Part shown: positions 2,250 through 48,200 of the stretch, in pieces
Numbering within the stretch: position 1 is the stretch's first letter
Layout: each line of letters opens with the position of its first letter
IMG/VR virus record: IMGVR_UViG_3300042890_003772
Coordinates: 307-64,306 of that record
Source of the DNA: a virus
Length of the DNA: 64,000 nucleotides
Strand: one strand, 5' to 3'
Position numbers and translations under genes: made by a program
The notes under the pieces: model-generated
Seen by the model: only the letters and a program-made list of their open reading frames with translations
Told to the model about the DNA's origin: nothing
Database searches by the model: none

Positions 2250-3266
2250 ATGAAATTATATGAATTATTTGAAGCTGAAGAATCTTCAGCACCTAAAACA
2301 AAACGATCAGCGTATGAGCAGTTGCTACCGTATAAGAATGATGCTGCTGTTTATATTAGTATGTCAAAAAACAGTAAGCCACCGATTAGCACTAAGTCAA
2401 CCGACGCTCCAGCCGGAATATATGCTTACCCGCTAAAGTCAACTTGGGCTAAGTATAATGTTGAGCAAAATCAAAACTTTGACAATTATCCGTATGCAAA
2501 CAACCACCCATATATTCATATCATAAAATTTCCACACGAAATCTTAGCTACTGATAGATATAGAAACTTAGAAAACGATATTAATGTTTTAAAAAATAGA
2601 TACTCACATTTAGTTAATCTAGATAAAGAACTTGAGCGCATTGCATACAAACAACCATTTGAAGCGTTCTGGCAATTAACAAAATACATTGCTAAAGAGT
2701 TAAGTCCTGAAAGATATCAACAACAATGGGCTAAAATTCTACTTGCTTTAAATTATAGTGGGTTTGCAGACTCTAATGAACTAATTCACGATGGTGAGCA
2801 AGTACAAGTACTGCTACTAAACAAAGACAAACTAGTTGTTCTAGATACTATTTTCAATAATGATTTTACGAAACGTAAATCAGAGTTACTGAGCATTTAC
2901 AACATTGATGCTCTTGAAGAAGCATTAGATGATAAAACTAAAAAAGTGAGTGTTATTTTAAGATCAATATCTGGTGAGTTATGTCAGAAACTTCAACGGT
3001 TGTTAGAATCAAAAGCTGCAGATCGCTCATTGTATGAATTCTTACACGGTCGTAGCGATACAGATGTTAAATTGTTATTGTTAGTATGGCTTAACGGTGT
3101 AGTAGATTTTAATAATGTCCGTACAAATCTTGCCACGTATCAGCAATCTGCGTTAAATGATAGCCCAGTAAGCTTGTTTGATTATGCTAAGCGCAACGTT
3201 AAGTTCCCATGGGTTCACGATACGCTTATTCACAATCTTGAATTATTCAAGTCAAAAGCTGGCTAG
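2250..3266 (+). CDS. Hypothetical protein with an N-terminal CTS-like signature (MKLYELFEAEE)
   Basis: 338-aa ORF with TATAAATA at 2212-2219. Its N-terminus resembles T4 internal-protein and Alt leaders. Confidence 0.55.
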   Translation: MKLYELFEAEESSAPKTKRSAYEQLLPYKNDAAVYISMSKNSKPPISTKSTDAPAGIYAYPLKSTWAKYNVEQNQNFDNYPYANNHPYIHIIKFPHEILATDRYRNLENDINVLKNRYSHLVNLDKELERIAYKQPFEAFWQLTKYIAKELSPERYQQQWAKILLALNYSGFADSNELIHDGEQVQVLLLNKDKLVVLDTIFNNDFTKRKSELLSIYNIDALEEALDDKTKKVSVILRSISGELCQKLQRLLESKAADRSLYEFLHGRSDTDVKLLLLVWLNGVVDFNNVRTNLATYQQSALNDSPVSLFDYAKRNVKFPWVHDTLIHNLELFKSKAG

Positions 3267-4025
3267 TTATTCCATACTAGCTGCGTTAATAAAATACAAA
3301 TGGGATGAAATATATTTTTCATCCCATACCGAATAAATTTCACTTAGCTTATCAGCAAGCTCTTTAAGTACTACATGGGTATGATGAAAGTTAACTGTTG
3401 CTATTCGATTATTTGCAAACGCGGTACCTATATGGCTTACTACATCATTATCGCGAATTGAAAAATGATTAATCCATGGTAGCTGTATCATAACATTAGA
3501 TGGTAATGTTTGATCTATATTCAATGTATCATCCAACATCTCATTATTAACAACGAGCTGCACATTGTATTGCTGGTTACCAGTAAAGGTAACAGATAAT
3601 TTATCACTATCTGCTAGTTTCCATATAAGCGTAATATTACCATCAATAGATGCCATTAACGGTATTGAAAATAACGAGTATGTTTGTACAAAAGTATATG
3701 CATCATCAATAACTGTAGGTGCAAGCTTATTAGCTAATCTACTATCTGTTTCTTCTATCCAAGTAATTAATTCAGACACAATGTTAGTAGCCATAACATT
3801 AAATTGAGCTTTTACACGGTAAGGTGTATCACAATGTGTACATGTAATTACCTTATTAGCCTCTAATAGACCAGCTAATACATCAATGGGTGTCTGTTCA
3901 AAGCGTTCGTATTCAGCAAGTACGCAATCACCACCTTTAGATTGTATCTGGTTACCTGTACCACATTTAGGGCAGTGCAGCGTTGTAGTATCAAACATAC
4001 CCATATCAAAATGTCTCCAATTCAT
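3267..4025 (-). CDS. Zinc-ribbon protein (CPKCG...CTHCD)
   Basis: 252 aa with two CxxC pairs near the N-terminus. Translationally coupled to the downstream nucleotidyltransferase gene. Confidence 0.5.
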   Translation of the reverse strand: MNWRHFDMGMFDTTTLHCPKCGTGNQIQSKGGDCVLAEYERFEQTPIDVLAGLLEANKVITCTHCDTPYRVKAQFNVMATNIVSELITWIEETDSRLANKLAPTVIDDAYTFVQTYSLFSIPLMASIDGNITLIWKLADSDKLSVTFTGNQQYNVQLVVNNEMLDDTLNIDQTLPSNVMIQLPWINHFSIRDNDVVSHIGTAFANNRIATVNFHHTHVVLKELADKLSEIYSVWDEKYISSHLYFINAASME

Positions 4026-4957
4026 TACAATGTCTTTTTTACAATATCAAGATGTATGGTCTCAATAACCGTATTCCAAAATTCACGATCTACGTCTTGC
4101 GGTAGTGTAGATTCATCTGATAACGCTAATGTTTCTTTAGTGATTCGTTCAATTTCTGGTTCGACCTCCGTCAAAAAATCTAGCTCACCAGCTTTAACCT
4201 TTATCAGAAAATCTGTTTCATCTAGTGGATATTCAAAGTAACCTTTAGTAAAGATGTCTCGAGCTTGATACCCGGCACGTAAGCAGTGCGACACAGCTTT
4301 CCAATCAACTCCAAGATTTTCTTTTGCTAATTTAGAACGCTCTCCATAATTTGCATAAATTTTTTCAAGCGTATCTAGCATATACTTAATTTTTAGATTG
4401 TCTTGAAACTTGCTACCAGCAAATTCATAGTATCTGTTACCTTTGTAGTCGATCCACTTTCCAAAGTCATTTATTGGAAAGTACATATCTTCAACAACTA
4501 AGTTAGCGTCGTGGTTTTTAAGGTAGTCAATGAGTTTTTCTAACTCACCAACCCGTGAGCCTTTAATGCCATATTTAGCTGCTTGTTTACGTACGTATCC
4601 AATATATGACTTCATTGATTTTGTATAAAATCGATGGCGATTACTCACAAGAAAATCCCAGATATCACTGGTGACAATACGTTTATCTACACCACCATGC
4701 AACATATCAAGTGCAACCGTTTCACCTTTACACGCAAGATCAATAAAGTAACTTAATGAGTAAAATGTACGATCAATATCATCTTTAGTATTTTTACCAG
4801 AATGATTGCTGGTGCTCTTGTCGACGTGATAGCTTGCTTTACCTAATAAAATTTCACTAGCGGTAGGTAAAACTATACCTTTATAATCCTTATCGGAGTT
4901 AGGTGTGTCTAAATCGTACAAGTGACTACCGAACAATGTTTCAACTATAATATTCAT
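4025..4957 (-). CDS. Predicted nucleotidyltransferase (pol-beta superfamily)
   Basis: The N-terminus FGSHLYDLDTPNSDKDYKGIV fits the G[GS]-x9-SDxD minimal nucleotidyltransferase motif, as in the PF10127-type family. Confidence 0.5.
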   Translation of the reverse strand: MNIIVETLFGSHLYDLDTPNSDKDYKGIVLPTASEILLGKASYHVDKSTSNHSGKNTKDDIDRTFYSLSYFIDLACKGETVALDMLHGGVDKRIVTSDIWDFLVSNRHRFYTKSMKSYIGYVRKQAAKYGIKGSRVGELEKLIDYLKNHDANLVVEDMYFPINDFGKWIDYKGNRYYEFAGSKFQDNLKIKYMLDTLEKIYANYGERSKLAKENLGVDWKAVSHCLRAGYQARDIFTKGYFEYPLDETDFLIKVKAGELDFLTEVEPEIERITKETLALSDESTLPQDVDREFWNTVIETIHLDIVKKTL

Positions 4958-5166
4958 TTACTGTTCCTAAAGATTTCATCAAACTTAAAGTCTAACGCTT
5001 GTTGCATACGAGCAGTACTTTTAGATGGGGTGTCACGTGCAACGCTTTCTGCGTGACACATACTGCGATCGGACATAATTTGTTTAAGTTCTAGTTCTGA
5101 TATCATAGCAGATCTACTAATTTTACTATTTAAGTTTTGGTCGTTAACTACCATAGTATTCACCAT
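4954..5166 (-). CDS. Hypothetical protein
   Basis: 70-aa ORF inside an overlapping minus-strand operon. Confidence 0.4.
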   Translation of the reverse strand: MVNTMVVNDQNLNSKISRSAMISELELKQIMSDRSMCHAESVARDTPSKSTARMQQALDFKFDEIFRNSK

Positions 5167-5391
5167 TTAAAAAATAACGTTTGCATAACGTAAGAACATT
5201 TTATTTACATCTTCACGAAACTTACGAGTAATTGCAGCATTTTTGTTTATTTGTAACTGTGTAGCAAATATACCGCATTGATCGCACTCACTAAAATACG
5301 ACGGTAGCTCTTTAACTACACCTCTATGTTCAAAAATCTCTAGATCTTCAAACGATACCGCGGTATCATCTCCGCATATACTACAAAGCAT
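5167..5391 (-). CDS. Small C4 zinc-ribbon protein
   Basis: MLCSICGDD...CDQCG. Confidence 0.45.
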   Translation of the reverse strand: MLCSICGDDTAVSFEDLEIFEHRGVVKELPSYFSECDQCGIFATQLQINKNAAITRKFREDVNKMFLRYANVIF

Positions 5392-5448
5392 TCTAAACCT
5401 CTTTATAATTGATTTAAAATACTATTGTAGTATATTTTAACATAAAAA

Positions 5449-6570
5449 TCAAATGGTATCTGCACTAAATTCAATATTTAGTACGTACTTTTTAAAGTAA
5501 TCAATATAGTTAACTTCTTTATGCCTAAATGCAGCAATCATTAAATGAAACAATGGATTATCTTTATGCTTTAAGCAAAAATCTTTAACTTCTAATCCAC
5601 CATCAATTACTACTGTAGCATCAACTGCAAGTGTAAGATCTCGTAATAAGTTAACCGCGCGGGTTTCAATAGCTTCTACTTTATTAAACAGTTCTGTATC
5701 ACCAATGCTGACACAATAAGCTTTAAAATCGTCTACTTTTTCATCTGCAACCATTTCCGCGATATTACGTTCAGTTGTAAATGTGCAGTTATGATGTAGT
5801 AAGTCGTACCAAGCACATTTCCATTTATATCGCTCACCTGCACTTGTTTCAAAAACATAGCCTTCAAAATTTTCAGCTGAGGCTAGCACATCTTTTAATT
5901 TTCCTAACCAATTTACATCATTAGTATCAACTGAAAATCTATCTACTAGGTTGATAGTACGAAATAATTTATTACATAGCTCAAGAAGCTCACTATAAGT
6001 CCAATACCTACCAGTAATATTCTCACGTACAGCTAATAATGTTAGCTTTACTTCATCGTATTTTAATACAATACGATTACTAGGTGCGGTATATTCAAAA
6101 ATTGGAGTAGCTTTAATTTCTTGAGTTAATAGATACTCACTTAATCGATATTCAGGAGACTCATCATTAAATATAGCGTTTACGTTCTGACTAATTTCAT
6201 TATCAAAACTCTTTTTAGTTTTAAAAACAATCTTATCATTAATGCGTACAGGTGAAATCATTGACCCATCACGCTTATCATAAGTTGATTGAATATCATT
6301 CCAGTCAATAACTTCTTCTTTTGTTTCAGGACGCTCGTTTACATTAAAGAATTTATGAAATGTTCTCGATGCAACATTACCTTCTGCGTCAAATGTGATA
6401 CCTCTACATTCACGAGCCCACTCTGCGTCTTCACCAGCAAATGTATCTCGATCTTGAAACATATAGCTAATTACTGTACAACCATTTTCATGTCTAACTA
6501 CGTTAATTTCAGACTTATCGCTGATATGTGGTAGTAAGTCGTTGATATTATTAATAATTGGAAAAGTCAT
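5449..6570 (-). CDS. rnlA: RNA ligase 1 (T4 gp63 / Rnl1 family)
   Basis: ECRGITFDAEGNV...HKFFNVNERP...DGSMISP...KIVFKTKKS is collinear with the T4 Rnl1 motifs ECRGIMFE...EKFFNLNENP...DGSLVST...EILFKSKGS. Confidence 0.8.
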   Translation of the reverse strand: MTFPIINNINDLLPHISDKSEINVVRHENGCTVISYMFQDRDTFAGEDAEWARECRGITFDAEGNVASRTFHKFFNVNERPETKEEVIDWNDIQSTYDKRDGSMISPVRINDKIVFKTKKSFDNEISQNVNAIFNDESPEYRLSEYLLTQEIKATPIFEYTAPSNRIVLKYDEVKLTLLAVRENITGRYWTYSELLELCNKLFRTINLVDRFSVDTNDVNWLGKLKDVLASAENFEGYVFETSAGERYKWKCAWYDLLHHNCTFTTERNIAEMVADEKVDDFKAYCVSIGDTELFNKVEAIETRAVNLLRDLTLAVDATVVIDGGLEVKDFCLKHKDNPLFHLMIAAFRHKEVNYIDYFKKYVLNIEFSADTI

Positions 6571-6609
6571 TTATGCACCTTTTGATTTAATTGATTGCTT
6601 TAAAATAAT

Positions 6610-6638
6610 ATTATAGTACAATTATAGTGTTAAGTCAA
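6610..6638 (-). promoter_or_regulatory. Consensus sigma70-type early promoter, TTGACT-N17-TATAAT
   Basis: The reverse complement reads ttaacTTGACTtaacactataattgtacTATAATattatttta, which would drive rnlA. Confidence 0.6.
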
Positions 6639-6946
6639 GTTAAATATTGTACTCTGCGATAATTCTTACGAACGTTACCTACCGTGTTCCACATGATAAG
6701 TCTTTTTGTCTCAAATACGACACATTGATGGTATAAATCATCTAAGTTATATTCAATACAGATGCACCCGTCCTCAGTAGTACAGGTACGTGTGATAGAT
6801 GCGTCTGTATACCGATCAAGCCATTGCAGTGCTCTAGCTCTCAGCGATTCATCATATAAATTAGTTAGATTATTAATATCGTCAATGTGTTGTTGCATTT
6901 GTATTCCCTTCAAATAACCTATATTCAATGCGAGATATTCCTTCAT
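6635..6946 (-). CDS. Hypothetical protein
   Basis: 103-aa ORF. Its 5' end overlaps the 3' end of the upstream kinase gene, and the true start may be the internal Met near 6898. Confidence 0.35.
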   Translation of the reverse strand: MKEYLALNIGYLKGIQMQQHIDDINNLTNLYDESLRARALQWLDRYTDASITRTCTTEDGCICIEYNLDDLYHQCVVFETKRLIMWNTVGNVRKNYRRVQYLT

Positions 6947-8003
6947 TATACATAGGTAGTGTAAACGATTTCATCATATGTAAGTATACATCATCACTTA
7001 TAGATTTACCAGCTTGACTTCTAATTTCATTGCGCCGTGCAAGTTCTGACATACCAGTTAAAAATAGTATGCACTCAACTCTATAATGTTTACCAAACTG
7101 ACCAATCCAACGACGTCTTGATTTTTTGCTCAAATTAGTCATATCGACAACTACGTTTGCATTAGTTGATTTAGCGGACTGAACTACTCTAGCAATTTCA
7201 TCATCGATAGCGGTTTTAACTTGCTTATCATTAGCTTGTAAGTGAAACGCTTCATTGTATGTAATGTTCATACGAGCTGCAATAGCTTCAAGCACGTTAT
7301 CTCTGGAGATAACAATTGTATCTGCAGGTAACGTTTCAACGTATGAAGATTTACCGCTACCAGGTAGACCACATAGTATAGTTAATCTATTTTTAGTAAT
7401 ATTAATATCAGGTTTATCAACTAACCGATCAACAATTGTTTTTGTGCGGTTAACTATTAATTCACCTAATTTAGTTCGAGCATCAGCACCTTTTGCAAAT
7501 CTACCGAGTGTGTCGCATCGAGTAATTCGACTAACATACGATAAAAACGTACGTTCACCTTCAAATATATTAAGAGCTTTTTCATCTAGCACAATGTCAT
7601 TATCTTCAATTAATACTAAATCAAATAGTAAACTGTGACCAGCTATAGTACGCAGAGTCATTATTTTATCTTCTGTTGACATATCTGTTCTATTTAATAT
7701 ATCAATCGCTAAAAACATGCTAATCGATTCATGTTGTACAAATCTAGCACGTGTTTTTTCTGGAATCTCGATACGAGCTGATGGTTTGCCGATATCATGT
7801 AGCAATGCAGCCCATTGTACAATATCATCTTCATTATATAATTCAGCTATTTTAGCCACCATAAGTGTATGAGTACTCACACGACCTTCTAGGTGATACG
7901 GGTTTAATGTAGTTGCATTAAAATGGTGATTACTGTTCTCCATATCACTCCACAATTTAGGGAATTCTATTTGCAACCACTCTACTTTTTGATTTGTGTC
8001 CAT
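6882..8003 (-). CDS. Bifunctional HD-domain phosphohydrolase / P-loop polynucleotide 5'-kinase (RNA end-healing enzyme)
   Basis: The N-terminal half has HD motifs (H...LLHDIGK). The C-terminal half has a Walker A motif (GLPGSGKSS) and a kinase-like region. It sits next to rnlA. The ATG at 8003 is preferred over the GTG at 8015. Confidence 0.6.
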   Translation of the reverse strand: MDTNQKVEWLQIEFPKLWSDMENSNHHFNATTLNPYHLEGRVSTHTLMVAKIAELYNEDDIVQWAALLHDIGKPSARIEIPEKTRARFVQHESISMFLAIDILNRTDMSTEDKIMTLRTIAGHSLLFDLVLIEDNDIVLDEKALNIFEGERTFLSYVSRITRCDTLGRFAKGADARTKLGELIVNRTKTIVDRLVDKPDINITKNRLTILCGLPGSGKSSYVETLPADTIVISRDNVLEAIAARMNITYNEAFHLQANDKQVKTAIDDEIARVVQSAKSTNANVVVDMTNLSKKSRRRWIGQFGKHYRVECILFLTGMSELARRNEIRSQAGKSISDDVYLHMMKSFTLPMYNEGISRIEYRLFEGNTNATTH

Positions 8004-8029
8004 AATAATCACCACGATAAAAAAATAAT

Positions 8030-8058
8030 ATTATAGTACACCTGCAATTATAAATCAA
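8030..8058 (-). promoter_or_regulatory. Sigma70-type early promoter, TTGATT-N17-TATAAT
   Basis: The reverse complement reads TTGATTtataattgcaggtgtacTATAATattattttt. It shares a 19-nt core with the rnlA promoter. Confidence 0.55.
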
Positions 8059-8121
8059 GTTATACGTGCATGTTATATGGAATAAATATATAATATACAC
8101 CTTAGATTTATGGAGCTATGT

Positions 8122-8376
8122 ATGCAATACGCTTTTAAGCACACAGTAACTGCTGTAAAATGGAATGGTAATAACTATCAAGCCATTTATGATATGACGG
8201 CTCAATTTAATTTAGAAAACACTCTTATATATGATGGTTCAAAATCATTATATGTAGGTGAAGAAGAGGCTGCGTTAGGTGAATACGTAGTTGTATGGCC
8301 TACTGTACCTGGTACTATTCAATCTGTGCTATACGACGAAGCATCATTTGAACATCAATTTGGAAAACTTCATTAA
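8122..8376 (+). CDS. Hypothetical protein
   Basis: ORF with GGAG 6 nt upstream of ATG 8122. Confidence 0.4.
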   Translation: MQYAFKHTVTAVKWNGNNYQAIYDMTAQFNLENTLIYDGSKSLYVGEEEAALGEYVVVWPTVPGTIQSVLYDEASFEHQFGKLH

Positions 8377-9101
8377 TATTTTCCATACCAATCAACTGGA
8401 GGAGTCTGCCCGCGTATAATATATTTACGTTCTGCAGATTTTAGACTATCAACCTGCTGCAAGCCAATAGGATTACGTATTGGACTAGTAAAGAATTGTA
8501 CTATAGCAGGCATTACAGTCGCCACCTCCTCATCTACACCTAGTATTTGCAACGGATAGTGTGCATTATTAAACACTTTTTGCATCTTTTCAATCGTTCT
8601 AGGTTTTGATTCGTGCGTATCTTTAATATACTCTGGTGGCACAAAGCGTCTACGTGATTCAGCCCGAGTTAATGATCGCTCTAATTCAGATTCTTTATAT
8701 AACATCATTACATCATAACCGTATTGACGTAGTCTACGCATACGCACGATAGTGCTATGAACATTAGATGCGGTAGTGTCAATAATAACTGGTAGCATAC
8801 TGGTTAGGTATAACTCAAGTTGTGATGACATTAACTCTTTAGTTCTATTTTGAATTGATACTGCTCCTGGAGCCTCAACTTCAGCGCTTGTACTAATAGG
8901 TACATCATGCTTCTTGCTCAAGTATTCATAAAATTTATCGTAATCTAATACGCGTGGTTTAATGCTATGTGATACAGTTAGTTCTTGAATAATATCTTTC
9001 ACGATTGTGCTTTTTCCACTAGCAGGAATACCACCTAAGAATAAGCACTTAAAAATACCTTTGTCGTAGATTCCTTCTGATAATATGTCATGCAATTTCA
9101 T
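8373..9101 (-). CDS. P-loop kinase-like protein with an N-terminal CTS-like signature (MKLHDILSEG)
   Basis: Walker A motif GGIPASGKST. Translationally coupled to the upstream ADP-ribosyltransferase gene (ATGA). Confidence 0.5.
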   Translation of the reverse strand: MKLHDILSEGIYDKGIFKCLFLGGIPASGKSTIVKDIIQELTVSHSIKPRVLDYDKFYEYLSKKHDVPISTSAEVEAPGAVSIQNRTKELMSSQLELYLTSMLPVIIDTTASNVHSTIVRMRRLRQYGYDVMMLYKESELERSLTRAESRRRFVPPEYIKDTHESKPRTIEKMQKVFNNAHYPLQILGVDEEVATVMPAIVQFFTSPIRNPIGLQQVDSLKSAERKYIIRGQTPPVDWYGKY

Positions 9102-9691
9102 GAAAGTGCCTCTTCTAAATGATCAAACCATAAGTCCATTGTGACCACGTAACAGTTATTAGCAATCATAACTTCACTACCATCTTCTAATGCTGCGTGG
9201 AGGTTCTTAGATATATATGTTGAAAGATATTGATCTAATTTTTGATAGAATTGTTGATCATATTTTTTTGCTGGATCTGCATCTTTACTAGATTCAAGCT
9301 TTGACACTGTATCGTACAAATCACCTACTTGAGGGCTCCACAAGTACTTTAATGGTCCAATAGGAAACAACACATATGCTTCACCATAAACTTCTGCAAC
9401 TTCCCAATCAGAGGTTGCAAAGATCGCATTACGGAATGGTAACCCAGCATGCTTAGTAAAGTAATCGTTAATATAATTATGAATCGTTATATTAGTATCT
9501 TTAGGACTTCTACTATCTAGTGATGGATGAATAACGGTCATTGGTGGTATATTGCTATCTTGTATTCCTCGAGATAATGGCACCCCAACGTTATTATACT
9601 CCGCAATAATTGGAGCACAATCACGTTTTAATATTGCTACAATTTCATCGATGCTATGATTATCATTATTAAGAATTTCATTTAGTTTCAT
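9098..9691 (-). CDS. ADP-ribosyltransferase, ModA/ModB/Alt-like, paralog 3
   Basis: The R (PLSRG), STS (IFATSDWE) and E (GSEVMIAN) motifs match T4 ModA (PLWRG, VVSASYD, EQEVMIP). N-terminus MKLNEIL. Confidence 0.55.
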   Translation of the reverse strand: MKLNEILNNDNHSIDEIVAILKRDCAPIIAEYNNVGVPLSRGIQDSNIPPMTVIHPSLDSRSPKDTNITIHNYINDYFTKHAGLPFRNAIFATSDWEVAEVYGEAYVLFPIGPLKYLWSPQVGDLYDTVSKLESSKDADPAKKYDQQFYQKLDQYLSTYISKNLHAALEDGSEVMIANNCYVVTMDLWFDHLEEALS

Positions 9692-10326
9692 TTTATTAAC
9701 TCCTGAACTACTTTTCCATAATCATAGATACTAACCATATAGCAATCATTTGCAAACATTATTTCGTGATCACTGGCAGTAGCTGCAAGTAAATCTTTAT
9801 TTGTATAGGTATTAATATATTGATTGAGTTTATCAAGCAGCAGCTTATTGTTGTAGTCACTAGCAGGTAAAGTACTGTCTAAACGATCCTCATCTGGATC
9901 AAACGCTGTACCATCTCCCAAGTTAGCAATTGTAGTGTCAACAACAGCAAACAGATCTTCTATATTAGGGCTCCAGATGAAATTTAATTCACCTACTGGG
10001 AACACTACGCTGACGGAACCATATCCAGCTGCACGTGGTTGATTACCTGTGGCAAATATTCCATTACGTAACGGAAAATGAAATTTTGTTTGAAACTCTT
10101 GATTTAAAAACTTATGTATTAATCTAGGCGTATCTAATGGAGTTCTATCTAATCTAGGTTTAATTAAGTTAATATGACCTGGATAGGCTTTACCGCTATT
10201 ACTACCTCTAAACAAGCAATCACCGTTATTTTGCTTTAGTATTTCAATATACGGTCCGCAATGCTGCTTAATAGTTTCAACAATATGTGATAAATCAGTT
10301 GCATCTATAACTTCATGTAATCTCAC
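9688..10326 (-). CDS. ADP-ribosyltransferase, ModA/ModB/Alt-like, paralog 2
   Basis: CLFRG, IFATGN and DHEIMFAN motifs. Paralogous to its two neighbours. Confidence 0.55.
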   Translation of the reverse strand: MRLHEVIDATDLSHIVETIKQHCGPYIEILKQNNGDCLFRGSNSGKAYPGHINLIKPRLDRTPLDTPRLIHKFLNQEFQTKFHFPLRNGIFATGNQPRAAGYGSVSVVFPVGELNFIWSPNIEDLFAVVDTTIANLGDGTAFDPDEDRLDSTLPASDYNNKLLLDKLNQYINTYTNKDLLAATASDHEIMFANDCYMVSIYDYGKVVQELIK

Positions 10327-10895
10327 GACATCACCGCATCTTTAATCATACCATAATTTTGAATCATAATACACTTATTGTTAAGCATAACTTCATGACC
10401 TGTTTGTATAGCTTTATCCAATTCATTATTTTGATACGCATCAGCTATGCTAGCAACAGCATTTATTAATGATTGTTTAGAGCTTTCAAGTGTCTCAAAG
10501 TCAAAGGTTTTATCCAATTGAACATATAAATCACTAATTTGTTTGCTCCAAATATAGTGCAATTCGCCAATTGGAAACACCGCATAAACCGGTCCGTAAT
10601 ACCGTGCATCATCATAACTGCTAGATGCAAAAACGCCATTGCGATATGGAAAACCAAATGCACGCTTGAACGATTGATTTAGTGCATCGTGTAGCACTCG
10701 AGGGGTATCAACCGGAACTCTATTTAAGTTAGGTTCTATTACATTAAAACCTTCAACGTTGGTAAATCTACTACCTTTATATCCACGAAATAATGGAGCA
10801 CCGTCAGTATGCTTTAATACTTCAATATAAGGAGCACATAACTGCTTTAATTTAGCAATATCTACATCTGGAACTGCGATTTCGTATAATTTCAT
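10323..10895 (-). CDS. ADP-ribosyltransferase, ModA/ModB/Alt-like, paralog 1
   Basis: PLFRG, VFASSSYD and GHEVMLNN motifs. N-terminus MKLYEI. Confidence 0.55.
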   Translation of the reverse strand: MKLYEIAVPDVDIAKLKQLCAPYIEVLKHTDGAPLFRGYKGSRFTNVEGFNVIEPNLNRVPVDTPRVLHDALNQSFKRAFGFPYRNGVFASSSYDDARYYGPVYAVFPIGELHYIWSKQISDLYVQLDKTFDFETLESSKQSLINAVASIADAYQNNELDKAIQTGHEVMLNNKCIMIQNYGMIKDAVMS

Positions 10896-39288: not shown

Positions 39289-42200
39289 ATGTTAGCAGAT
39301 GGTTTACAGTTCCTAGAAGGGTCGGTCAATACTAATCTTGTTTTGCCCGCCTTGTCAGAAAGCGGTAGAAATGCATTAGTTAATGTTAATGTTGGTGAAG
39401 TAGTATTTCAGACGACCGGTCAAAAAGGTATTTACGTCTATAATGGTACTAGCTGGCAATATGGGCTATCTATCGCATTAGATAGCACAAATCCAACTAC
39501 ATTATTTGGATATGGAATTACAGATGCAGTTCGTGCAAATGCCGCCATTACCGCAGGTACTGGAACTAAAATCACATATGATAATAAGGGGCTTGTAACA
39601 GGGTCTACTACATTAGACATTAGTGATATTCCAAACCTACCAACCTCTAAATTAACTGGACAAATAACTATAGGTCAATTACCTGACCTAGGATCAACTG
39701 CAAGCACATATGTAAAAGTATATGTTGATGCAACAGGTCGTGTAGTTGGTGGTGAAACTACTGCCACATTAGCTACATTAGGTATTACTGATGCAATTCA
39801 AGCTAATACCGCAATTACAGCCGGTACCGGCACAAAAATAACTTACGATTCAAAAGGTTTAGTAATATCATCTGATGTATTAACCGCGTTAGATATACCA
39901 GATATAGAGACCAGTAAATTACTAGGTAGAATTACACCGGAACAATTACCATTGCTCGGTGATTCTGTTGCTGGGTACAGCAGTGTATCGATAGATGCAA
40001 CTGGTCGTGTGGTTGGAGGTAGTAATCCAACTACATTAGGTGGCTATGGTATTATCGATGCTGTGTTAGCTAATTCACAGATTGTAGGTAGCACAGGCAC
40101 TAAAATTACCTATGATTACAAAGGGTTAGTTACATCATCAACGCAGTTAATTGCGAGTGATATTCCATCGTTAGATGCAAGTAAAATTACCACGGGTAGA
40201 TTTTCAGCTAATTTCTTACCATTTATTGAGACATTAACACCTGGTACGTATACTAAAGTAACTGTTGATAGTACTGGTCGAGTAATTGCATGTGAAACAC
40301 CTACTACTATAGATGAGTATGGTATTACTGATGCAATGCGAGCTAATCCCGCAATTACACCAGGTACTGGTACAAAAATTACATATGATGCGCAAGGGTT
40401 AATCACAGATGCTGCAGTCTTAGCACCAACCGATATTCCAAGCTTACCAGCATCAAAAATTGTATCAGGGGTATTAAGTTCAAGTTTATTGCCAAACTCA
40501 GGTGTAACAGCTGGTGATTACTACAAAGTAACTGCAGATATACATGGTCGTATCACGGCAGGTGCTAGTACATTAGATATATCTGATATTACCGACTTAT
40601 CTACGGTATTAGCAAGTAAAGCTACTCCTGCAAACATCACTGACGCTATTGATGCAGTGTATGGTGGTGTAGGTGTACCTGGAAACACACTTAAAAAGAT
40701 TTACGATATTGCAGTTGCTAGCAACCACGAGATAACAGTCGCTGATACAAATGCAAGAATTGGAACATACGTTTCATCATTACCTACCAACATCTTTGTT
40801 GTTAACGATGGTGACGGTGAATGGGCGTTATATAAAGCGTTAGCAACCGGCCTAGCCACTAACAATAACGTTATAAAATTATCAGATCCTAGTATATTAA
40901 ACACCGCGAATGGTTATATACCTGAAGATCGTACAAATAAAGATACTGATCCAACATTAGCAGCTAATAGTGATATTAAATATCCATCACAAAAAGCAAT
41001 AAAAGCGTATGCCGATACAAAGGTACCTAAAAATGCGTTAATTACAGCTGGTACAGGAGCAAAGCTTACCTACAATCAATTTGGTTTGGTAACCGGAACT
41101 GGTACATTACTAGCTAGTGATATTCCAAACCTGGATGCAAGTAAAATTACATCCGGTATCTTACCAACATCAGTATTACCCACCTCAGGTGCTAACCCAT
41201 CACTATCATACGTAAAAGTAAACGTTGATACATATGGCCGGGTAATATCTGGATCAACAGAGTTAGCAGCAGGTAATATACCGTCATTAGATGCAAGTAA
41301 AATTACATCTGGTAAATTACTAGTTAGTGTAATGCCAAACTTAGGTACACCTGTATCAACGTACACCAAGGTACGTATTGATAGTACTGGTCGTGTGGTA
41401 TCTGGCTCAAATCCAACAGCACTCGCTGATTACGGAATAACAGACGCTGTTACAGCTAACCCAACCATTGCAGCTGGCGCTGGGATTAAGATAAGTTATG
41501 ATAGTAAAGGGTTAGTTACAGGCTCAACATCATTAGTAGCCAACGATATTCCAAACATATCCGCTGCAAAAATTACCTCAGGTGTTTTAAATAGCTCCGT
41601 ATTACCTACATCAGGTATTGCTGAAGGTAATTATAAATCAGTTACCGTAGATTCACATGGTCGAGTAATATCTGGTACAAACACATTAACATTTGATGAT
41701 GTATCTGGATTAACATCTGCGATTACAAACGCAGCATCTAATGCAAGTGTATCAACAGCAATTAATACAGCAATTTCTAACTTACGAGCTGATGTACCTT
41801 CTCAAGGAAGTACATTAAAAGGCTTGTACGACATGGTGCTGGCGAGCAACCATGAGCTTAACGCTGCAACAGTTGTAGCTAGAGATGCATTAGAAATTGT
41901 ATCGTTACCAACTAACGTATTTGTATTAGACGATGGTGACGGGCAATGGGCGTTATATAAAGCATTATATTCAGACTCACAGTTTAACGATTACCTCATT
42001 ACGCATCCAACAGCTGTTGCTAGCGATAGATATGTAAAGGTATCTGATCAAACATCATTGAACGCATCACTGGGTACATCTACTGAGGTTAAAACTAATA
42101 AATCAACAAATATTGAGCTACTTGATGGATTGTCAGCAAGTAACGTTAAATATCCAACACAGCTTGCAGTAAAAACATACGTTGATAACCAAATACAAAC

Positions 42201-45200
42201 AGTTGCAACTGTAGTTGCCGATTCATTAACAGATATTATTACAACATCTGCACTACCAGAAGGTGCTGATTTAGCTCTTAATAAATTAGTATTAGATAAT
42301 GATCCAAGATTATCTGGTAATAGTGCACCGATGTCTCATCAACATCCAATATCAGATATTATTGATTTAGCTACAATACTTGACGGTAAAGTTAACGCAA
42401 TCAGTATACCAGCTGGTAGCGGTCCATATATTACATATAATAATCAAGGTGTTGTAACTGCATCTAGACAACTAACCTCATTAGACCTACCGTTAGTCCC
42501 AGTAAATAAAATTGACGGTGTATTAACATCAAGTCAGTTACCAACTAATACTGTATATACTGATGTTAGCGGTACGATTGCAGTTAGTAAATTACCAAGT
42601 ACTGTTTTGTTATCAACAAACCTACCTGGTGATATAGTAACAACTAGTACTGGTGGTGTAATTGCTCAAGCTAAGTTACCAACTACATTAGTATACGTTG
42701 ATGGAACTGGTAAAATACCTGAAAGCTTAATACCGGCATCGTCTCAAGTATCGTTAATTGATACCATTACAGTTGCCGATTTAATTGAATTAAACGCTAA
42801 CACAACCGCGGTAGTTGGTACAATCGCAATTGTTGTTGATACTAGCGAAACATATGTACAAACAACCAATGGTTGGACCAAATTAAATGTACCGTCAGGA
42901 ACTGTATCATCTATTAATGGTCGCTCAGGTGTAATTAGTAAAATACTACCAGCTGATATCGATGGAGATTTTGTAAACTCTATTAATGGCCGTACTGGTA
43001 TAATCGATAAAATTCATACATCAGATTTAGATGGTAATTTTATTGAATCTATTAATGGTAAATCTGGGGTTATTAGTAAAATTGAACCAGCAGATATTAC
43101 TGGGTTATTTGATGATACATTAGCTACAGTAACATTATTAGCTGGGGTGTTACCAGAATTTACCGGTGATGTGTATTCAGAGATTGGTACAAACGTTTTA
43201 ACTTTAAATGATGTTCCAGGATTAGATACAGAAGTATTCTACTCATCAATTAAAGTTAACAGCAAAGGTATTGTTGTTGAAGGTAGTGAGGTTGGTAACG
43301 GTGGTTCAATAATATCATTTGAACAAACTGATGCACGATACGTACTTAAATCATACTTAGGACTAAAAGATACTGCTGGTGGTGTTGCTGGACTAAACAG
43401 TTCAGGTGTATTACCGCTAACTGTATTGCCAGCATTCACTGGAGACCTTACATCACCAGCTGGTTCAAATGTATTAACATTAAAAACTATTGCTGGTTTA
43501 AACAGTACTAATACATTCTCATCTGTTACTGTAAACCGTAAAGGTTTAGTAACTGGTGGTTCAACTCAAATTGTATATAATAAAGCACAAGCCGACGCAT
43601 TATTCTTATCTATTAATGACGCTGGTGCAAAAAATACAGCTAATGGATATGTCGGATTAAACGCTGATGCGGTGATGTATGCAGCTCAATTACCTGGGTT
43701 TGTTGGTGATGTAACTGCACCAATTGGATCACGTACATTAACATTGAATACTATACCAGGTGTTACACCTGGTGCAAGTTACTCTACTGTTGTTGTAAAT
43801 AGTAAAGGTATTGTAACATCAGGTACATTAGCTTCAACAGCTGCGGGTGATATTGCTGCAACATATGTAACAAAAGTATCATTAGGTAATAGAAACGCAG
43901 CGAACGGATACCTAGGATTAAATTCAAGTGCAAAAATAGACTCACAATACTTACCGTTATTATTCTTAAACAATAGATTTATTGTAAACACAATAGCTGA
44001 ACGTAATGCAATCACAGATGCACATATGGGTGATATTGCTATCGTTAATGGTTCGGTAGGTAAATGTTATATCTTAAATGCAGCAACCTCTGCTAATCCT
44101 GATAATTGGGTAGAATTGGTAACATCTAATAACGTTTACCAAGTAAACGGTAAAGCTGGTCTAGTAGAACTAGTATTAAGTGATATTAATGGTACACTTG
44201 ATATCAGTAAACTACCTATTCGTACTGCTGGTGATGTAATTACCGATCCAACAACGCGTGAATTAAGATTAAAAGATGTTGGTGTTAACGCACTAGCTAG
44301 TGGAGCAACTGCAACATATAAATCGGTAACTGTTAACAGTAAAGGTTTAGTAACGGGTGGATCAAATCCAACTACATTAGCCGGATACGGCATTACTGAC
44401 GCAATTAGTACACGTAGATTACCACTGCACGATGATGGTGAGGCACCATTCTTGACACTAGGTTTCGAAGGTACCATCGACCCAACCATGGTACAGAGTG
44501 ATATATTCACTGTAGACGAATTACCGGTTGATGGAGTAATTAACAAATTATATAGAATAGTTGGCACTAATAAGTCATACGTTTGGGACGGTACTGCATT
44601 TGTACAAATGACTACAACTGATGCAAGCTTGCTAAATGTTGGGACATTACCTGCAGCGAGATTACCAGCATTTACTGGTGATGCAACTGTACCGCTTGGT
44701 ACGAGTGCAATAACCTTAGCTAATACTGGTGTAACAGCTGGAACATACACACAGCTAACTGTTGATACTAAAGGTCGAGTAATATCAGCTACACAAGCAC
44801 CACCACCAGACGCATATACTAGATCACAAGCGGATGCAAAATATGTAACGCAAACATCGTTAGGTCTTAGAAATACCGCAAACGGGTACGTTGGGTTAGA
44901 TAGTAGCAATAAAATTGATTCCAACTTATTGCCATCGATATCAATAAGTGATATTTTCCCGGTAAACACATTAGCTGAACGTGATGCATTAACTACAACA
45001 CATATTGGTGATATGGCAGTTGTAGGTGGTGAGGTTAACGTTAACTATATCTTATCTGGTGTTAATCCTCGTGTGTGGACACCAATGGCTAACCCAATGG
45101 GTGGAGTCGTTGCAGTTAACGGTTCAACTGGATCAATAACATTAACGTTAGATAACATTTCTGGATCACTACAAAACTCCGCACTACCAGCGTTTGTCGG

Positions 45201-48200
45201 GGATATTACATCTGTAGCTGGATCTAATACGCTAACAATTGATAAAATTCGTGGAATAACAGTTGATGCAGATTTTAATGCAACTACATTACCTACAGAT
45301 GGATATTCATTAACGTATATGGCGAGTAGCGGTAAAGCTACTTGGAGACCAACCGGTACAGATGCAACTAACTTAATAACTGGTATTTTACCTGTTGGTA
45401 GATTACCTGCATTAACAGGTGACATCACAACGGTGGTGGGACACAATGTTGCAACAGTTGGTAAATTAAACGGTATTACATTAGATACCGGGTTTACTAC
45501 CGTTACACCACCAACTAATGGTTACGTGTTAACATATGCATCAGTTGGATCAAAAGCTACTTGGAAAGCATTAGATGCAAGTAAAGTTACTGTTGGTACG
45601 TTACCAGTAGCAAGACTACCGGCGTTAACAGGTACAGATGTAACAGCTGATGCTGGAACGGGGGTATTAAAGTTATCAACAACTGGTGTTGCTGCAGGCA
45701 CATATACTTCAGTTACAGTTAACACTAAAGGTCGAGTTACAGCTGGAACGGTAATACCAATCGTAGACGCATATTCAAAACTTGTATCTGATAACAAATA
45801 TGTTGCAAAATCAGTATTAGGTAACAGAAATACTGCTAATGGTTATGTTGGGTTAAATAGTGATAACAAAATGAACGTAGTTCATTTACCCGCTATTACC
45901 ATGAATATTATATTTGCTGTAGCTACATTAGCGCAAAGAGATGCACTAACAACTCAGCATATCGGTGATGTTGCTATTGTTGGTGGTACAGTTAATCGCA
46001 CATACATCTTATCAGCTGTTTCACCTAAAGTTTGGATTGAATTGCTGAACCCATTAGGTGGAGTATTATCACTCAATGGAGCTACAGGTGTTGTAAACTT
46101 AACACTAGATAATATTGAAGGTACATTACACTCAGGTGCATTACCAGCATTTACTGGCGATGTAACGTCAATGGCTGGTGATAATGTACTAGAATTAGCT
46201 GCAACTGGAACAGCTGGTACATACTATAAAGTTACTACTGATGTTAAAGGACGTGTAACATCAGGTGCAACAACACTTGCTGTTAGTGACTTACCAGAGC
46301 TACCATGGAGCAAAGTATCAGTCGATATGCCAACAACCTTGACTGGGTTTGGCATCACTGATGCGATTAATACATCAAGACTGCAAGCTGGTGATAATGG
46401 TGAAGATAAACTAGCTACCGTTGGTAGTAATGGTGCAATTGCTCCTAGTTTACTACCAGCGTTTACTGGTGATGATATTACATCAGCAGTTGGTTCGAGC
46501 GTATTAGCGTTAACCGAAACAGGTGTAACTGCAGGTACTTATACTGCAGTTACAGTAGATGTTAAAGGTCGTGTAACATCCGGCTCGTATGCTCCACCAC
46601 CAGATGCATATACAAAAACGGAAACTGACGGTAAGTATGTACTTAAAACAACTCTAGGTACAAGAAATGCTGCAAATGGCTGGGTTGGGTTAGATAGCAA
46701 TAGTAAAATTAGCGCAAGTTTATTGCCATCACTTGCTATTAACTCAATATATCCAGTTACCACAATAATAGCTCGTGACGCATTAACTACTACACATTTA
46801 GGTGATGTTGCGATTGTTGGTGGATCGGTAAATGTTAACTATATGTTAACATCGGTAACTCCAACAAGAGTATGGACACCAATTTCAAATCCATTAGGTA
46901 GTGTAACTTCCATCAATGGTTCAACAGGTGTAGTTACATTAGACCTATCAAATATAACTGGGACATTACGCCTCGACTCATTGCCAACATTTACTGGTGA
47001 TGTATCGCTATTACCTGAAACAAGCATACTTAAAGTTTTAAGCTTGAATGGTATAGTATTAGATACTACACATAATGAAGCTGTACTGCCAAACAACGGT
47101 AATGTATTAACTTACTCGTCAGCTGATAGTAAAGCTATGTGGCAGTCATTAAGTGCAAATCATATAGCTACAGGTACGTTATCTGCATCTGTAATGCCTG
47201 CATTTAATGGTGATGCCATTTCAACAACAGGTAACGCAAACCTAACAGTTGTTGCTTTAAACGGTATAGCATTAGATCGTGAATTTGATCCTTTCTCGCA
47301 CCCAACTAATAATCATGTACTTTCATATGATACTGCTGGAGTTAAAGCTACATGGAAAGCGTTAAGTGCGAGTAATATATTAACTGGTACATTGCCAGCT
47401 GGTAGATTACCGGAACTTATAGGTGATGTTACTTCAAACGCTGGATCTAATACATTACTATTAACTGATACTGGTGTTGTTGCAGGTACTTACAGTAGTG
47501 TAACCGTAGATACAAAAGGTCGAGTCGTATCAGGTACAGCTGTACCCAACACTGATGCATATTCAAAAATTGTCTCAGATAACAAATATGTTGCAAAAGT
47601 AACATTAGGTGGTCGTAATGAGATTAACGGATTCGTTGGATTAAATAGTGAACGTAAAATTGATGCTGTATATTTACCAGATATCACATTAAACGACATC
47701 GCTGTTGTATCAACCATAGTTGAACGAGATGCACTAACTACTAATCATATCGGTGATATCGCAATAGTTGGTGGTTCTGTTAATAAAACATTTATTTTAT
47801 CATCTACTTCACCACGCACATGGACAGAGTTAGTAAATCCATTAGGCGGAGTAACATCGTTAAATGGTCAAACAGGCAATGTAAATTTAACGTTAAGTAA
47901 TATTAACGGTATATTAGATACATCAGCATTACCAATGTTTACAGGTGATGTTACTTCACTTGAAGGTAGTAACGTATTAACTTTAGCAACTACTGGTGCA
48001 GCCGGTACCTATTATAAAGTAACTACAGATACAAAAGGTAGAGTAACAGCCGGTGTAGCCGCATTAGTTAGCAGTGATATCCCACCACTTAGCTGGAGTA
48101 AGGTTGTATATGGTAGACCGACAACACTAAGTGGCTACGGTATTACCAACGCAATTACTTCTGATAGATTACCGGTAGGTGATGATGGTGTTAGTAAGAT

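Follow-up and report, generated by a model that had tools for sequence, protein, structure and literature searches.

Predicted HD-Pnk, Rnl1 and RlaP genes in one co-oriented phage cassette with conserved promoters: a probable RNA break-repair set

Bacteriophage T4 reverses the damage done by the anticodon nuclease PrrC with Pnkp/PseT and Rnl1, according to a heal-then-seal logic in which the 3'-end is healed by a C-terminal HAD phosphatase, and its two repair genes, PseT and Rnl1, are unlinked. In bacteria, Pnkp/Hen1 and Pnkp1/Rnl/Hen1 likewise bring together a kinase, a phosphoesterase and a ligase for the repair of RNA cut by ribotoxins, their phosphoesterase being a calcineurin-type metallophosphoesterase. 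A further bacterial arrangement is the HD-Pnk of Runella slithyformis, the gene of which adjoins an ATP-dependent ligase gene (PMC6097658). Jumbo phages are reported to combine Rnl1/Rnl2, Pnk, RlaP and phosphoesterases, among which a few are of the HD type (Iyer et al. 2021, PMC7824862), and RlaP, whose T4 homologue is NrdC.11, adds 1-2 nt to RNA 3'-OH ends only, with a preference for cleaved-tRNA mimics (PMC12776372).

The locus compared here with these systems lies in a window of 64,000 nt, that is, the whole stretch of DNA analysed, which corresponds to positions 307-64,306 of IMG/VR record IMGVR_UViG_3300042890_003772. Judged from its major head protein, which is closest to those of XacN1, CM1/RAS14, Xoo-sp13 and RsoM2USA, the source would be an uncultivated jumbo phage of the XacN1 / RsoM2USA group. 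The minus-strand cassette shares with T4 the heal-then-seal logic, a homologous ligase and a homologous kinase domain, whereas its 3'-healing domain is an N-terminal HD domain, its genes are clustered under one promoter design, with the small orf87 and orf74 inserted between them. It also differs from the Pnkp/Hen1 systems in this HD domain, and no Hen1 methyltransferase was found in the phage cassette. Compared with the jumbo-phage sets, the phage group and the repertoire (ATP-grasp RNA ligase, polynucleotide kinase, phosphoesterase and RlaP) are the same, and the distinctive features are the single tight co-oriented cassette, three conserved sigma70-type promoters, the clade-specific 87-aa gene and an MqsA-N-like gene. 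Every component is of an already described kind, and because comparative jumbo-phage work already describes such sets, the locus adds another example and not a new kind. The cassette is probably a phage set for the repair of RNA breaks, most likely in tRNA.

The gene at 6882-8003 (minus strand) would encode an HD-Pnk of 373 aa, in which a predicted N-terminal HD 2',3'-phosphoesterase domain is fused to a predicted C-terminal P-loop 5'-OH polynucleotide kinase domain. A GTG at 8015 was considered as its start and rejected in favour of the ATG, since a 99%-identical database protein is likewise 373 aa long. The earlier note had read an HD and P-loop kinase fusion with the motif GLPGSGKSS in this gene, and Pfam profile searches agree, matching residues 43-125 to HD (6.8e-10) and residues 207-350, with that P-loop, to AAA_33 (2.2e-20). 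The HD metal residues on which the note had made this reading depend (H45, H69-D70, H91, H123 and D164) are invariant in all 37 family sequences aligned, as are K73 and R168. In the kinase half, where a Walker A Lys-Ser, a general-base Asp and lid arginines would form the active site, G212, K218, D235, D287 and R296 do not vary among the same 37 sequences, while conservation reaches at least 90% at S219 and R328. The AF2 model reaches a pLDDT of 93, and a two-domain build may be proposed from the Pfam boundaries together with the separate fold matches of each half. The predicted activities of the enzyme would be those of a 5'-OH kinase and of a 2',3'-cyclic, 3'- and 2'-phosphoesterase.

T4 Pnkp aligns to HD-Pnk through the kinase domain alone (chain residues 4-155), and no HAD-family match that would indicate a DxDxT 3'-phosphatase domain of the T4 Pnkp type was found in HD-Pnk by profile search. 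The P-loop Lys-Ser of T4 Pnk, presumably K15-S16, aligns with K218-S219 and its general-base Asp, which we take to be D35, with D235; the pairwise alignment gave no conserved counterpart of T4 Pnk R38, and this was counted against the RNA-repair reading. The best Foldseek matches are mammalian PNKP, the fold of the kinase half also matches the bacterial RNA-repair kinases 4gp6 and 4xrp, and the best sequence and fold matches of that half are polynucleotide, tRNA or RNA kinases. These matches, the invariance of the Asp aligned with the T4 general base and the fact that phage and bacterial members alike are linked to RNA ligases make it very unlikely that HD-Pnk acts on small molecules, its HD domain degrading nucleotide signals or dNTPs and its P-loop domain serving as a nucleotide kinase, in counter-signalling or nucleotide metabolism.

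The start of the ligase gene lies 312 nt downstream of the HD-Pnk stop on the same strand (6882 to 6570). This second gene (5449-6570, minus strand, 373 aa) is predicted to encode an ATP-dependent RNA ligase of the T4 RNA ligase 1 type, as had been proposed from the letters alone, and the family models, the T4 structures and the catalytic residues concur. It matches Pfam RNA_lig_T4_1 (PF09511) at 9e-27 with 94.8 bits for a gathering score of 28.3, PHROG 562 at 2e-64 over residues 26-365 and the T4 Rnl1 structures at 3e-36. With 150.6 it stays under the NCBIfam T4 RnlA equivalog cut-off of 242.25, a further point counted against RNA repair. In the HMMER alignment to 2c5u, all T4 Rnl1 residues checked are kept, namely eleven which we take to be essential (R54, K75, F77, K99, G102, K119, E159, E227, G228, K240 and K242) and the motif-I residue D101, their counterparts being R56, K73, F75, K99, D101, G102, K119, E159, E236, G237, K249 and K251. 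The adenylylation lysine is K99, in the motif KxDG, and sealing activity and a preference for tRNA would be the predicted properties of the enzyme.

PHROG 562 bears the name 'RNA ligase and tail fiber protein attachment catalyst', and a co-oriented row of baseplate genes (gp25-like and hub-like) lies just upstream of the module; both would suit a Rnl1 homologue acting mainly in tail-fibre attachment, like the second role of T4 gp63, with the kinase as an incidental neighbour. As a main function this is highly improbable: every ligase catalytic residue checked is retained, the gene has its own sigma70-type promoter that is conserved in relatives, and its linkage with HD-Pnk and RlaP recurs in unrelated phage contigs. 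Moreover, such a role would be compatible with that of a ligase, and the two are not mutually exclusive.

The gene order HD-Pnk, orf87, Rnl1, RlaP is kept in relatives at 99, 90, 77 and 59% HD-Pnk identity. The earlier note had considered HD-Pnk unusual for phages, which did not hold: the family, which corresponds to PHROG 6931, occurs in more than 40 IMG/VR contigs and in Campylobacter phages, and PMC7824862 mentions HD-type phosphatases in the RNA repair of jumbo phages. Linkage was surveyed in about 38 distinct full-length viral HD-Pnk loci with fetched flanks of 6-8 kb. Rnl1 was found by tblastn within 8 kb of HD-Pnk in 16 of them, always on the same strand, and by Pfam in 2 further ones; RlaP and an ATP-dependent DNA-ligase domain are each near HD-Pnk in 4. 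A ligase accompanies HD-Pnk in about half of the distant loci; in about as many the 6-8 kb flank contains none, which was also weighed against RNA repair. The linkage of Rnl1, HD-Pnk and RlaP recurs well beyond this phage clade, in unrelated phage contigs. The best cultured-phage matches are the HD-kinases of Campylobacter phages (Eucampyvirinae), with 29-33% identity over about 90% of the length and the same architecture; in Campylobacter phage WX1, HD-Pnk has capsid and tail-sheath genes as neighbours and lacks a ligase within 6 kb, again to the disadvantage of the RNA-repair reading. The RsoM2USA Rnl1 locus, the closest cultured one, is not syntenic.

The bacterial counterparts share both domains. 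The Runella HD-Pnk is alike by description in domain composition, order and size class (about 370-400 aa), and the full-length comparison was made with the Methylorubrum protein (L168:4884-6080), which hhalign aligned to the phage family with a probability of 99.6% and an E of 2.6e-24 over 319 columns covering both domains. The partner ligase differs, being of the Rnl1 type (PF09511) in the phage and of the Runella type or PF09414 beside bacterial HD-Pnk; on the Methylorubrum extorquens AM1 megaplasmid, a PF09414 RNA ligase ORF lies upstream of HD-Pnk. The phage-clade motifs ALLHDIGKP and VDMTNxSKK hardly occur in 185,579 bacterial and archaeal genomes.

In 2017 Munir and Shuman reportedly found that the Runella HD-Pnk accepts DNA ends besides RNA ends, dephosphorylating DNA 3'-phosphate and phosphorylating DNA 5'-OH, and the phage HD-Pnk may therefore be less than RNA-specific, a point counted against the RNA-repair reading. 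The cassette might accordingly heal and seal DNA, with HD-Pnk cleaning 3'-phosphate/5'-OH nicks in the phage DNA, for example after attack by a host nuclease, and the ligase closing them, and the DNA-ligase domains near four distant viral loci and the Foldseek likeness to PNKP, a DNA-repair enzyme, point the same way. This is nevertheless quite improbable, since the RNA ligase encoded alongside is of the Rnl1 type and keeps T4-like residues, HD-Pnk is linked to Rnl1 more often than to any other ligase, the HD domain is closest to those associated with tRNA nucleotidyltransferases (CCA-adding enzymes), and RlaP, present in the cassette, belongs to a family shown to act on RNA (PMC12776372).

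RlaP itself is the nucleotidyltransferase at 4025-4957 (minus strand), identified by PF10127 (3e-11, 43.9 bits for a cut-off of 23) and PHROG 388 (4e-88). Its Pol-beta motif G[GS]...DxD is represented by G10-S11 and D22-x-D24, invariant in 8 homologues. The gene had been tentatively assigned to the same theme, and this assignment gains from its family and from its position, for in the window as in every close relative it follows Rnl1 in the same orientation. A tRNA-directed set could alternatively be a housekeeping one that takes part in the processing or maturation of tRNAs of the phage or the host, for example by trimming and rejoining, and not one for counter-defence; jumbo phages of the XacN1/RsoM2USA group often carry many tRNA genes (PMC7824862), and the kinship of the HD domain with those of CCA-adding enzymes is in keeping with such work. 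No tRNA gene was found in the 64-kb window, however, a result counted against housekeeping and against the RNA-repair reading alike. We also know of no phage housekeeping tRNA pathway that needs both a 5'-kinase and a ligase, and the neighbouring orphan-antitoxin-like orf74 fits a counter-defence setting, so that housekeeping is extremely unlikely.

HD-Pnk had been described as directly next to the ligase gene, which has to be amended: a conserved, clade-specific small gene of 87 codons, orf87 (6635-6898, minus strand), stands between them. At its start it shares 17 nt with the end of HD-Pnk, to which it would be coupled in translation, and it ends in a stop codon that overlaps the -35 element of the Rnl1 promoter. 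An 87-aa database protein is 100% identical to it, and only 4 clusters were found among 5.8 billion proteins. In relatives orf87 keeps 60-84% identity and an invariant basic tail, VRKNYRRVxYLT, which is disordered in the AF2 model (pLDDT 76), and neither profile searches for families nor a structure search for folds gave a match.

Downstream of Rnl1, orf74 (5167-5391, minus strand) is a stand-alone zinc ribbon (CxxC...CxxC) resembling the N-terminal, MqsR-binding domain of the MqsA antitoxin. Its residues 3-66 align with positions 1-65 of 127 of NCBIfam TIGR03830 (E 1.3e-4), thus with the whole MqsA zinc-ribbon domain, and all 5 members of the orf74 family match that model, the best at 3.5e-10. 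In a PDB profile search, the top four matches were E. coli MqsA, including 3ga8 and 3hi2 (E 5e-4). Unlike MqsA, it is without the HTH half and no toxin gene is adjacent; as it ends after the ribbon at 74 aa and scores 21.8 bits, under the curated cut-off of 61.8, it is termed MqsA-N-like and not a full-family member. Orphan antitoxins carried by phages are a known means of counter-defence, DarG-like ones (PMC11825919) being an example. Contiguous with orf74 is the small orf70 (4954-5166, minus strand), which overlaps the RlaP start (ATGA), is 86% conserved in relative L002 and had no family match in profile searches. The last gene, orf252 (3267-4025, minus strand, 252 codons), has N-terminal CxxC pairs, for which profile searches gave only sub-threshold zinc-ribbon matches; it is conserved at 77% in L002 and 42% in L005, and a terminator-like hairpin lies at 3300-3327.

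On the other side of HD-Pnk, the gene at 8373-9101 (minus strand, 242 aa) encodes a Zeta-toxin/AAA_33-type P-loop kinase (Pfam Zeta_toxin 6e-9, AAA_33 3e-7) that matches PHROG 12810 and, at 5e-6, PHROG 505, 'polynucleotide kinase'. It is syntenic in all relatives; at its start it runs into the late-looking row of genes upstream, and between it and the HD-Pnk promoter lies a gene on the opposite strand (8110-8376). Its membership in the repair module is uncertain.

The claim that each enzyme gene has its own near-consensus promoter with a common 19-nt core was borne out. P1 (8030-8058, minus strand), upstream of HD-Pnk, reads TTGATT-N17-TATAAT followed by ATTATTTT and agrees with the consensus at 10/12 positions; P2 (6610-6638, minus strand), upstream of Rnl1, reads TTGACT-N17-TATAAT followed by ATTATTTT and agrees at 11/12. 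Exact copies of the 19-mer TGTACTATAATATTATTTT stand at 6602-6620 and 8022-8040; allowing up to 3 mismatches gives 4 matches for 0.29 expected, and none of 100 shuffles gave as many as four. A third promoter of the same type, P3 (5424-5452, minus strand), which lies upstream of orf74 and reads TTGATT-N17-TACAAT followed by AGTATTTT, was observed in addition to the two first claimed. The promoter regions form the two longest direct-repeat families within 3000-10500, P3 being in family D2, and only four intergenic TTGAnn-N17-TAyAAT sites occur in the 64 kb, three of them in the repair module. The promoters are conserved across relatives although the flanking DNA diverges. The -35/-10 pair of P1 is kept in L002 (90% clade) and L089 (59% clade), with a weaker -35 in L005, while the -35 of P2 becomes TTGATT in L002, TTGATG in L005 and TAGACA in L089, its leader GCAATCAATTAAAT.AAAAGGTGCA being kept in all four. 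P3 has the same design in L005, and its -10 is degenerate in L002, which is without orf74. P1, P2 and their shared 19-mer are thus real, beyond chance and conserved down to 59% protein identity. As three host sigma70-type promoters of one design are present, the cassette could be transcribed by host RNA polymerase as soon as infection begins, and the immediate-early expression proposed earlier may be predicted from these motifs.

A scheme of RNA repair fitted to the observed domain identities, catalytic residues, predicted kinase fold, conserved promoter motifs and recurrent linkage would assign substrates, order of steps, timing of expression and the host nuclease countered as follows. Three units would be transcribed, HD-Pnk and orf87 from P1, Rnl1 from P2, and orf74, orf70, RlaP and orf252 from P3. 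A host defence RNase would cut tRNA to leave a 2',3'-cyclic phosphate and a 5'-OH, upon which the HD domain of HD-Pnk would hydrolyse the cyclic or 3'-phosphate to a 3'-OH and its kinase domain would phosphorylate the 5'-OH. Where a RloC-type nuclease has removed a nucleotide, RlaP, which needs a 3'-OH, might add one or two back before Rnl1 seals the 3'-OH and 5'-phosphate ends. Nothing in the window points to the host or its nucleases, which was counted against this reading, and the literature searched held neither enzymatic nor transcript data on any phage HD-Pnk.

The small genes allow a more speculative extension, an 'anti-RNase island' in which orf87 would be a new adaptor or specificity subunit bridging HD-Pnk and Rnl1 or recruiting broken tRNA, and orf74 would directly neutralise an MqsR-type host RNase. 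Such an arrangement is rather unlikely; if true, one array of early promoters would let the phage prevent RNA cleavage as well as mend it.

Taken together, the locus is a clean and compact case of predicted HD-type healing combined with Rnl1 and RlaP, probably directed against tRNA-cleaving defences that include nucleotide-removing nucleases, and it is also suited to asking whether interleaved small genes contribute. Public annotation of the family is inconsistent, PHROG 6931 being of 'unknown function' and GenBank records reading 'polyA polymerase' or 'AAA family ATPase', as in some Campylobacter phages, while others of these bear 'putative polynucleotide 5' kinase and 3' phosphatase'. Re-annotation of dozens of phage genes would be justified, and the locus extends known RNA-repair biology and does not change it.

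The open reading frame map places three repair enzymes, Rnl1, HD-Pnk and RlaP, in one minus-strand gene row. The assignment of Rnl1 (5449-6570, minus strand, 373 aa) as a T4-type RNA ligase 1, made in an earlier note from a reading of the sequence, was upheld by matches to Pfam RNA_lig_T4_1 (9e-27, above the gathering score), to PHROG 562 (2e-64, nearly full length) and, in a sequence search of the PDB, to the solved T4 Rnl1 structures (3e-36). When aligned to the T4 Rnl1 structure, the protein keeps, in addition to the motif-I D101, T4 residues R54, K75, F77, K99, G102, K119, E159, E227, G228, K240 and K242, the latter set being essential in T4 Rnl1. Tail-fibre attachment, the other role weighed for this ligase, is considered much less likely than RNA repair. 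The untranslated leader of Rnl1 (~33 nt at 6571-6609, minus strand, GCAATCAATTAAAT.AAAAGGTGCA) is nearly invariant across relatives, more conserved than the coding sequence and kept even where the relatives' Rnl1 is only 58% identical; this constancy may reflect a translational or regulatory constraint.

The fusion of an HD domain to a P-loop kinase, also claimed in the earlier note, was found in HD-Pnk (6882-8003, minus strand, 373 aa), in which Pfam searches place the HD domain at residues 43-125 (6.8e-10) and the AAA_33 kinase domain at residues 207-350 (2.2e-20). The ATG, and not the GTG at 8015, was taken as the start codon, since this gives the same length as a database protein of 99% identity. 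In a 37-member alignment of the family, H45, H69-D70, K73, H91, H123, D164 and R168 are invariant in the HD half, so that the metal ligands on which the HD assignment had been made to depend (H45, H69-D70, H91, H123 and D164) are all in place; in the kinase half, G212, K218, D235, D287 and R296 are invariant and S219 and R328 are at least 90% conserved. The kinase part groups in NCBIfam with PSTK, bacterial Pnkp and PNK-3'Pase, and the T4 Pnk kinase domain aligns with HD-Pnk at 2e-5 with matching P-loop and general-base Asp. Action of HD-Pnk on small-molecule substrates is held to be much less likely than action on broken RNA. The HD part groups with HDIG domains and with the HD region of the E. 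coli multifunctional CCA addition/repair protein; housekeeping tRNA processing, as a function of the cassette, is likewise judged much less likely than repair. The window itself holds no tRNA genes and no Rfam families.

Two IMG/VR contigs match the window at 99% identity, and the order Zeta-like kinase, opposite-strand orf88, HD-Pnk, orf87, Rnl1, RlaP is retained in relatives at 90, 77 and 59% HD-Pnk identity. A megablast of 3900-9200 against 50,697 phage records returned no match, implying no close cultured relative. The closest Rnl1 among cultured phages is that of RsoM2USA (38.6%), whose locus has neither HD-Pnk nor RlaP within 5 kb and is therefore not syntenic with the window. The best matches of the major head protein are in the jumbo phages XacN1, CM1/RAS14 and Xoo-sp13 (~61%) and RsoM2USA (50%). 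One ORF of 3461 codons (39289-49674, plus strand) lies in the structural-gene region of the window.

Outside the clade of the window, ~38 distinct full-length viral HD-Pnk loci were found. By tblastn, 16 of them carry Rnl1 within 8 kb and always on the same strand, and Pfam detected Rnl1 in 2 more; RlaP occurs in 4 and an ATP-dependent DNA-ligase domain in 4. Repair of DNA ends by the cassette is nonetheless regarded as much less likely than repair of RNA. Among cultured phages, the best HD-Pnk matches are proteins of Campylobacter Eucampyvirinae (29-33% identity), which carry differing annotations ('polyA polymerase', 'AAA family ATPase' and 'putative polynucleotide 5' kinase and 3' phosphatase'), and in one of these phages, WX1, no ligase lies within 6 kb of the HD-kinase gene. 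PHROG 6931 covers the family under the label 'unknown function'. Given the number of loci, the Campylobacter matches and this PHROG, the architecture is widespread in phages, and its description in the earlier note as unusual does not hold. A 42%-identical HD-Pnk is encoded on a Logan contig (L006, SRR33375177, 220-12882) that carries SIR2 and cREC_REC genes alongside Rep3-type replication genes. No ligase occurs in the 13 kb seen, and the context may be plasmid-like or that of a phage-plasmid.

The same domain order occurs in a bacterial protein encoded on the Methylorubrum extorquens AM1 megaplasmid, downstream of a PF09414 RNA ligase ORF; it aligns with the phage family over both domains (hhalign probability 99.6%, E 2.6e-24), in agreement with the ligase-then-HD-Pnk arrangement of Runella (PMC6097658). 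When bacterial and archaeal genomes were scanned with the HD-Pnk profile, most of the matches were HD-only proteins, and the motifs peculiar to the phage clade are almost absent from 185,579 such genomes. The sole apparently full-length match of the scan, from Saccharibacillus sp. O16, was rejected as an instance of the same architecture since its domains stand in reverse order; there, a two-gene unit (L013, 5998-7669) encodes a protein with an N-terminal kinase and a C-terminal HD domain, followed by a PF09414 RNA ligase. The pairing of kinase and HD with a ligase thus occurs in both domain orders.

The proposal that each of the two genes has its own sigma70 promoter agrees with what was found upstream of HD-Pnk (P1, TTGATT-N17-TATAAT, 8058..8030, minus strand) and upstream of Rnl1 (P2, TTGACT-N17-TATAAT, 6638..6610, minus strand). 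A third site of the same design (P3, TTGATT-N17-TACAAT, 5452..5424, minus strand) lies directly past the Rnl1 stop codon. The identical 19-nt core claimed for the first two, TGTACTATAATATTATTTT on the minus strand, is exact at both, and matches with up to 3 mismatches number 4 against 0.29 expected, a count reached in 0 of 100 shuffles. Intergenic TTGAnn-N17-TAyAAT occurs at only four sites in the whole 64 kb, three of them within the repair module, and in an independent repeat search of 3000-10500 the two longest direct-repeat families are these promoter regions. That the 19-mer belongs to a mobile or repeated element is disfavoured; a shared promoter design is the simpler reading because the 19-mer is confined to promoter positions and the spacers differ between copies. 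Across related contigs, the -35 and -10 boxes are retained, as is the ATTATTTT after the -10, while spacers and flanks diverge, which gives good comparative support for P1-P3 being functional sigma70-type promoters. P1 is retained in the 90% and 59% relatives and is weaker in the 77% relative, P2 is retained in all three with the conserved Rnl1 leader, and P3 is retained in the 77% relative. It is plausible that host RNA polymerase could read all three, allowing expression from the start of infection. A promoter-like plus-strand site at 4922-4951, antisense inside the RlaP start region, was set aside as a by-product of coding sequence.

The enzymes were also said to be direct neighbours; they do share the same row, but an intervening gene, orf87 (6635-6898, minus strand, 87 codons), separates HD-Pnk from Rnl1. 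It is preceded by a Shine-Dalgarno-like GAAGGGA, overlaps the HD-Pnk stop by 17 nt and has its own stop codon within the P2 -35 element. Its product is 60-84% conserved in relatives, ends in an invariant, basic tail (VRKNYRRVxYLT) predicted to be disordered, and is limited to the phage clade of the window (4 clusters in 5.8 billion proteins). The predicted fold comprises two helices and then a beta-sheet (five short strands by DSSP). Searches of Pfam, PHROG and NCBIfam gave no match for orf87, and its best Foldseek hit was not significant (E 0.17); weak similarities to fragments of RlmN and RnlA were discounted.

Downstream of Rnl1, P3 is followed by four tightly packed genes, orf74, orf70, RlaP and orf252. 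The nucleotidyltransferase at 4025-4957 (minus strand), suspected earlier of belonging to the same theme, was identified by Pfam and PHROG as RlaP (PF10127); its G-S...D-x-D motif is invariant in eight homologues, and it has no sequence match in the PDB. The 74-aa product of orf74 (5167-5391, minus strand), a CxxC...CxxC protein encoded between Rnl1 and RlaP, can be aligned to the toxin-binding zinc ribbon at the N-terminus of the MqsA antitoxin (TIGR03830, E 1.3e-4; top PDB matches 3ga8 and 3hi2) but misses the HTH half of MqsA. Of the relatives, those at 99% and 77% carry orf74 and those at 90% and 59% lack it. As phages are known to carry orphan antitoxins (PMC11825919), it is an attractive idea that orf74 may act as a decoy, an orphan antitoxin directed at an MqsR-type RNase.

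Upstream of HD-Pnk lies a second P-loop kinase, of the Zeta-toxin/AAA_33 type (8373-9101, minus strand), which has a weak PHROG 'polynucleotide kinase' match and none by sequence in the PDB. It is syntenic with the module in every relative and appears to be part of an upstream, translationally coupled gene row. Two tandem paralogues (9098-9691 and 9688-10326, minus strand; 35% mutual identity, E 7e-35) have no match in Pfam or NCBIfam, and in relatives the family forms a row of three or four genes upstream of the Zeta-like kinase. The motif M[KR]LxE[ILV][ILF] was noted at the N-terminus of four proteins, at 8373-9101, 9098-9691 and 9688-10326 (minus strand) and 2250-3266 (plus strand), the four N-termini being MKLHDILSEG, MKLNEILNND, MRLHEVIDAT and MKLYELFEAE. 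A 190-aa paralogue of the relatives shares it (MKLYEI...), and the window's own copy of that paralogue (10323-10895) was missed by the motif scan. The shorter form, M[KR]LxE[ILV], borne by the Zeta-like kinase, three neighbouring paralogues and the protein at 2250-3266, is conserved in relatives and reminiscent of the T4 capsid-targeting sequence; by this analogy, its bearers may be packaged in the virion and injected.

A comparison across jumbo phages describes RNA-repair sets in which Rnl1/Rnl2 ligases occur together with polynucleotide kinases, phosphoesterases and RlaP; most of the phosphoesterases are of the HAD type and 'a small number' are HD-like (PMC7824862). In later work RlaP was found to extend RNA 3'-OH ends by one or two nucleotides, with a preference for cleaved-tRNA mimics, and was proposed as an antidote to nucleotide-removing nucleases such as RloC (PMC12776372). 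Taken together, the cassette probably serves the repair of tRNA breaks by HD-Pnk, RlaP and Rnl1, which could be expressed early by the host polymerase. A host RNase would cut the tRNA to leave a 2',3'-cyclic phosphate and a 5'-OH; the HD domain would open and then remove the phosphate, the kinase domain would phosphorylate the 5' end, RlaP would, when needed, replace a lost nucleotide on the 3'-OH made by the HD domain, and Rnl1 would seal the break. Observed identities, catalytic residues, linkage and promoter conservation, with the predicted fold, underlie this reading, and from them we infer its substrates, order of steps, timing and target. The observation of the earlier note is thereby confirmed and its interpretation supported, apart from three corrections. 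The locus makes a well-formed further example of an already known type of system, and its worth lies in a tidy experimental entry point and in annotation repair rather than in conceptual novelty.
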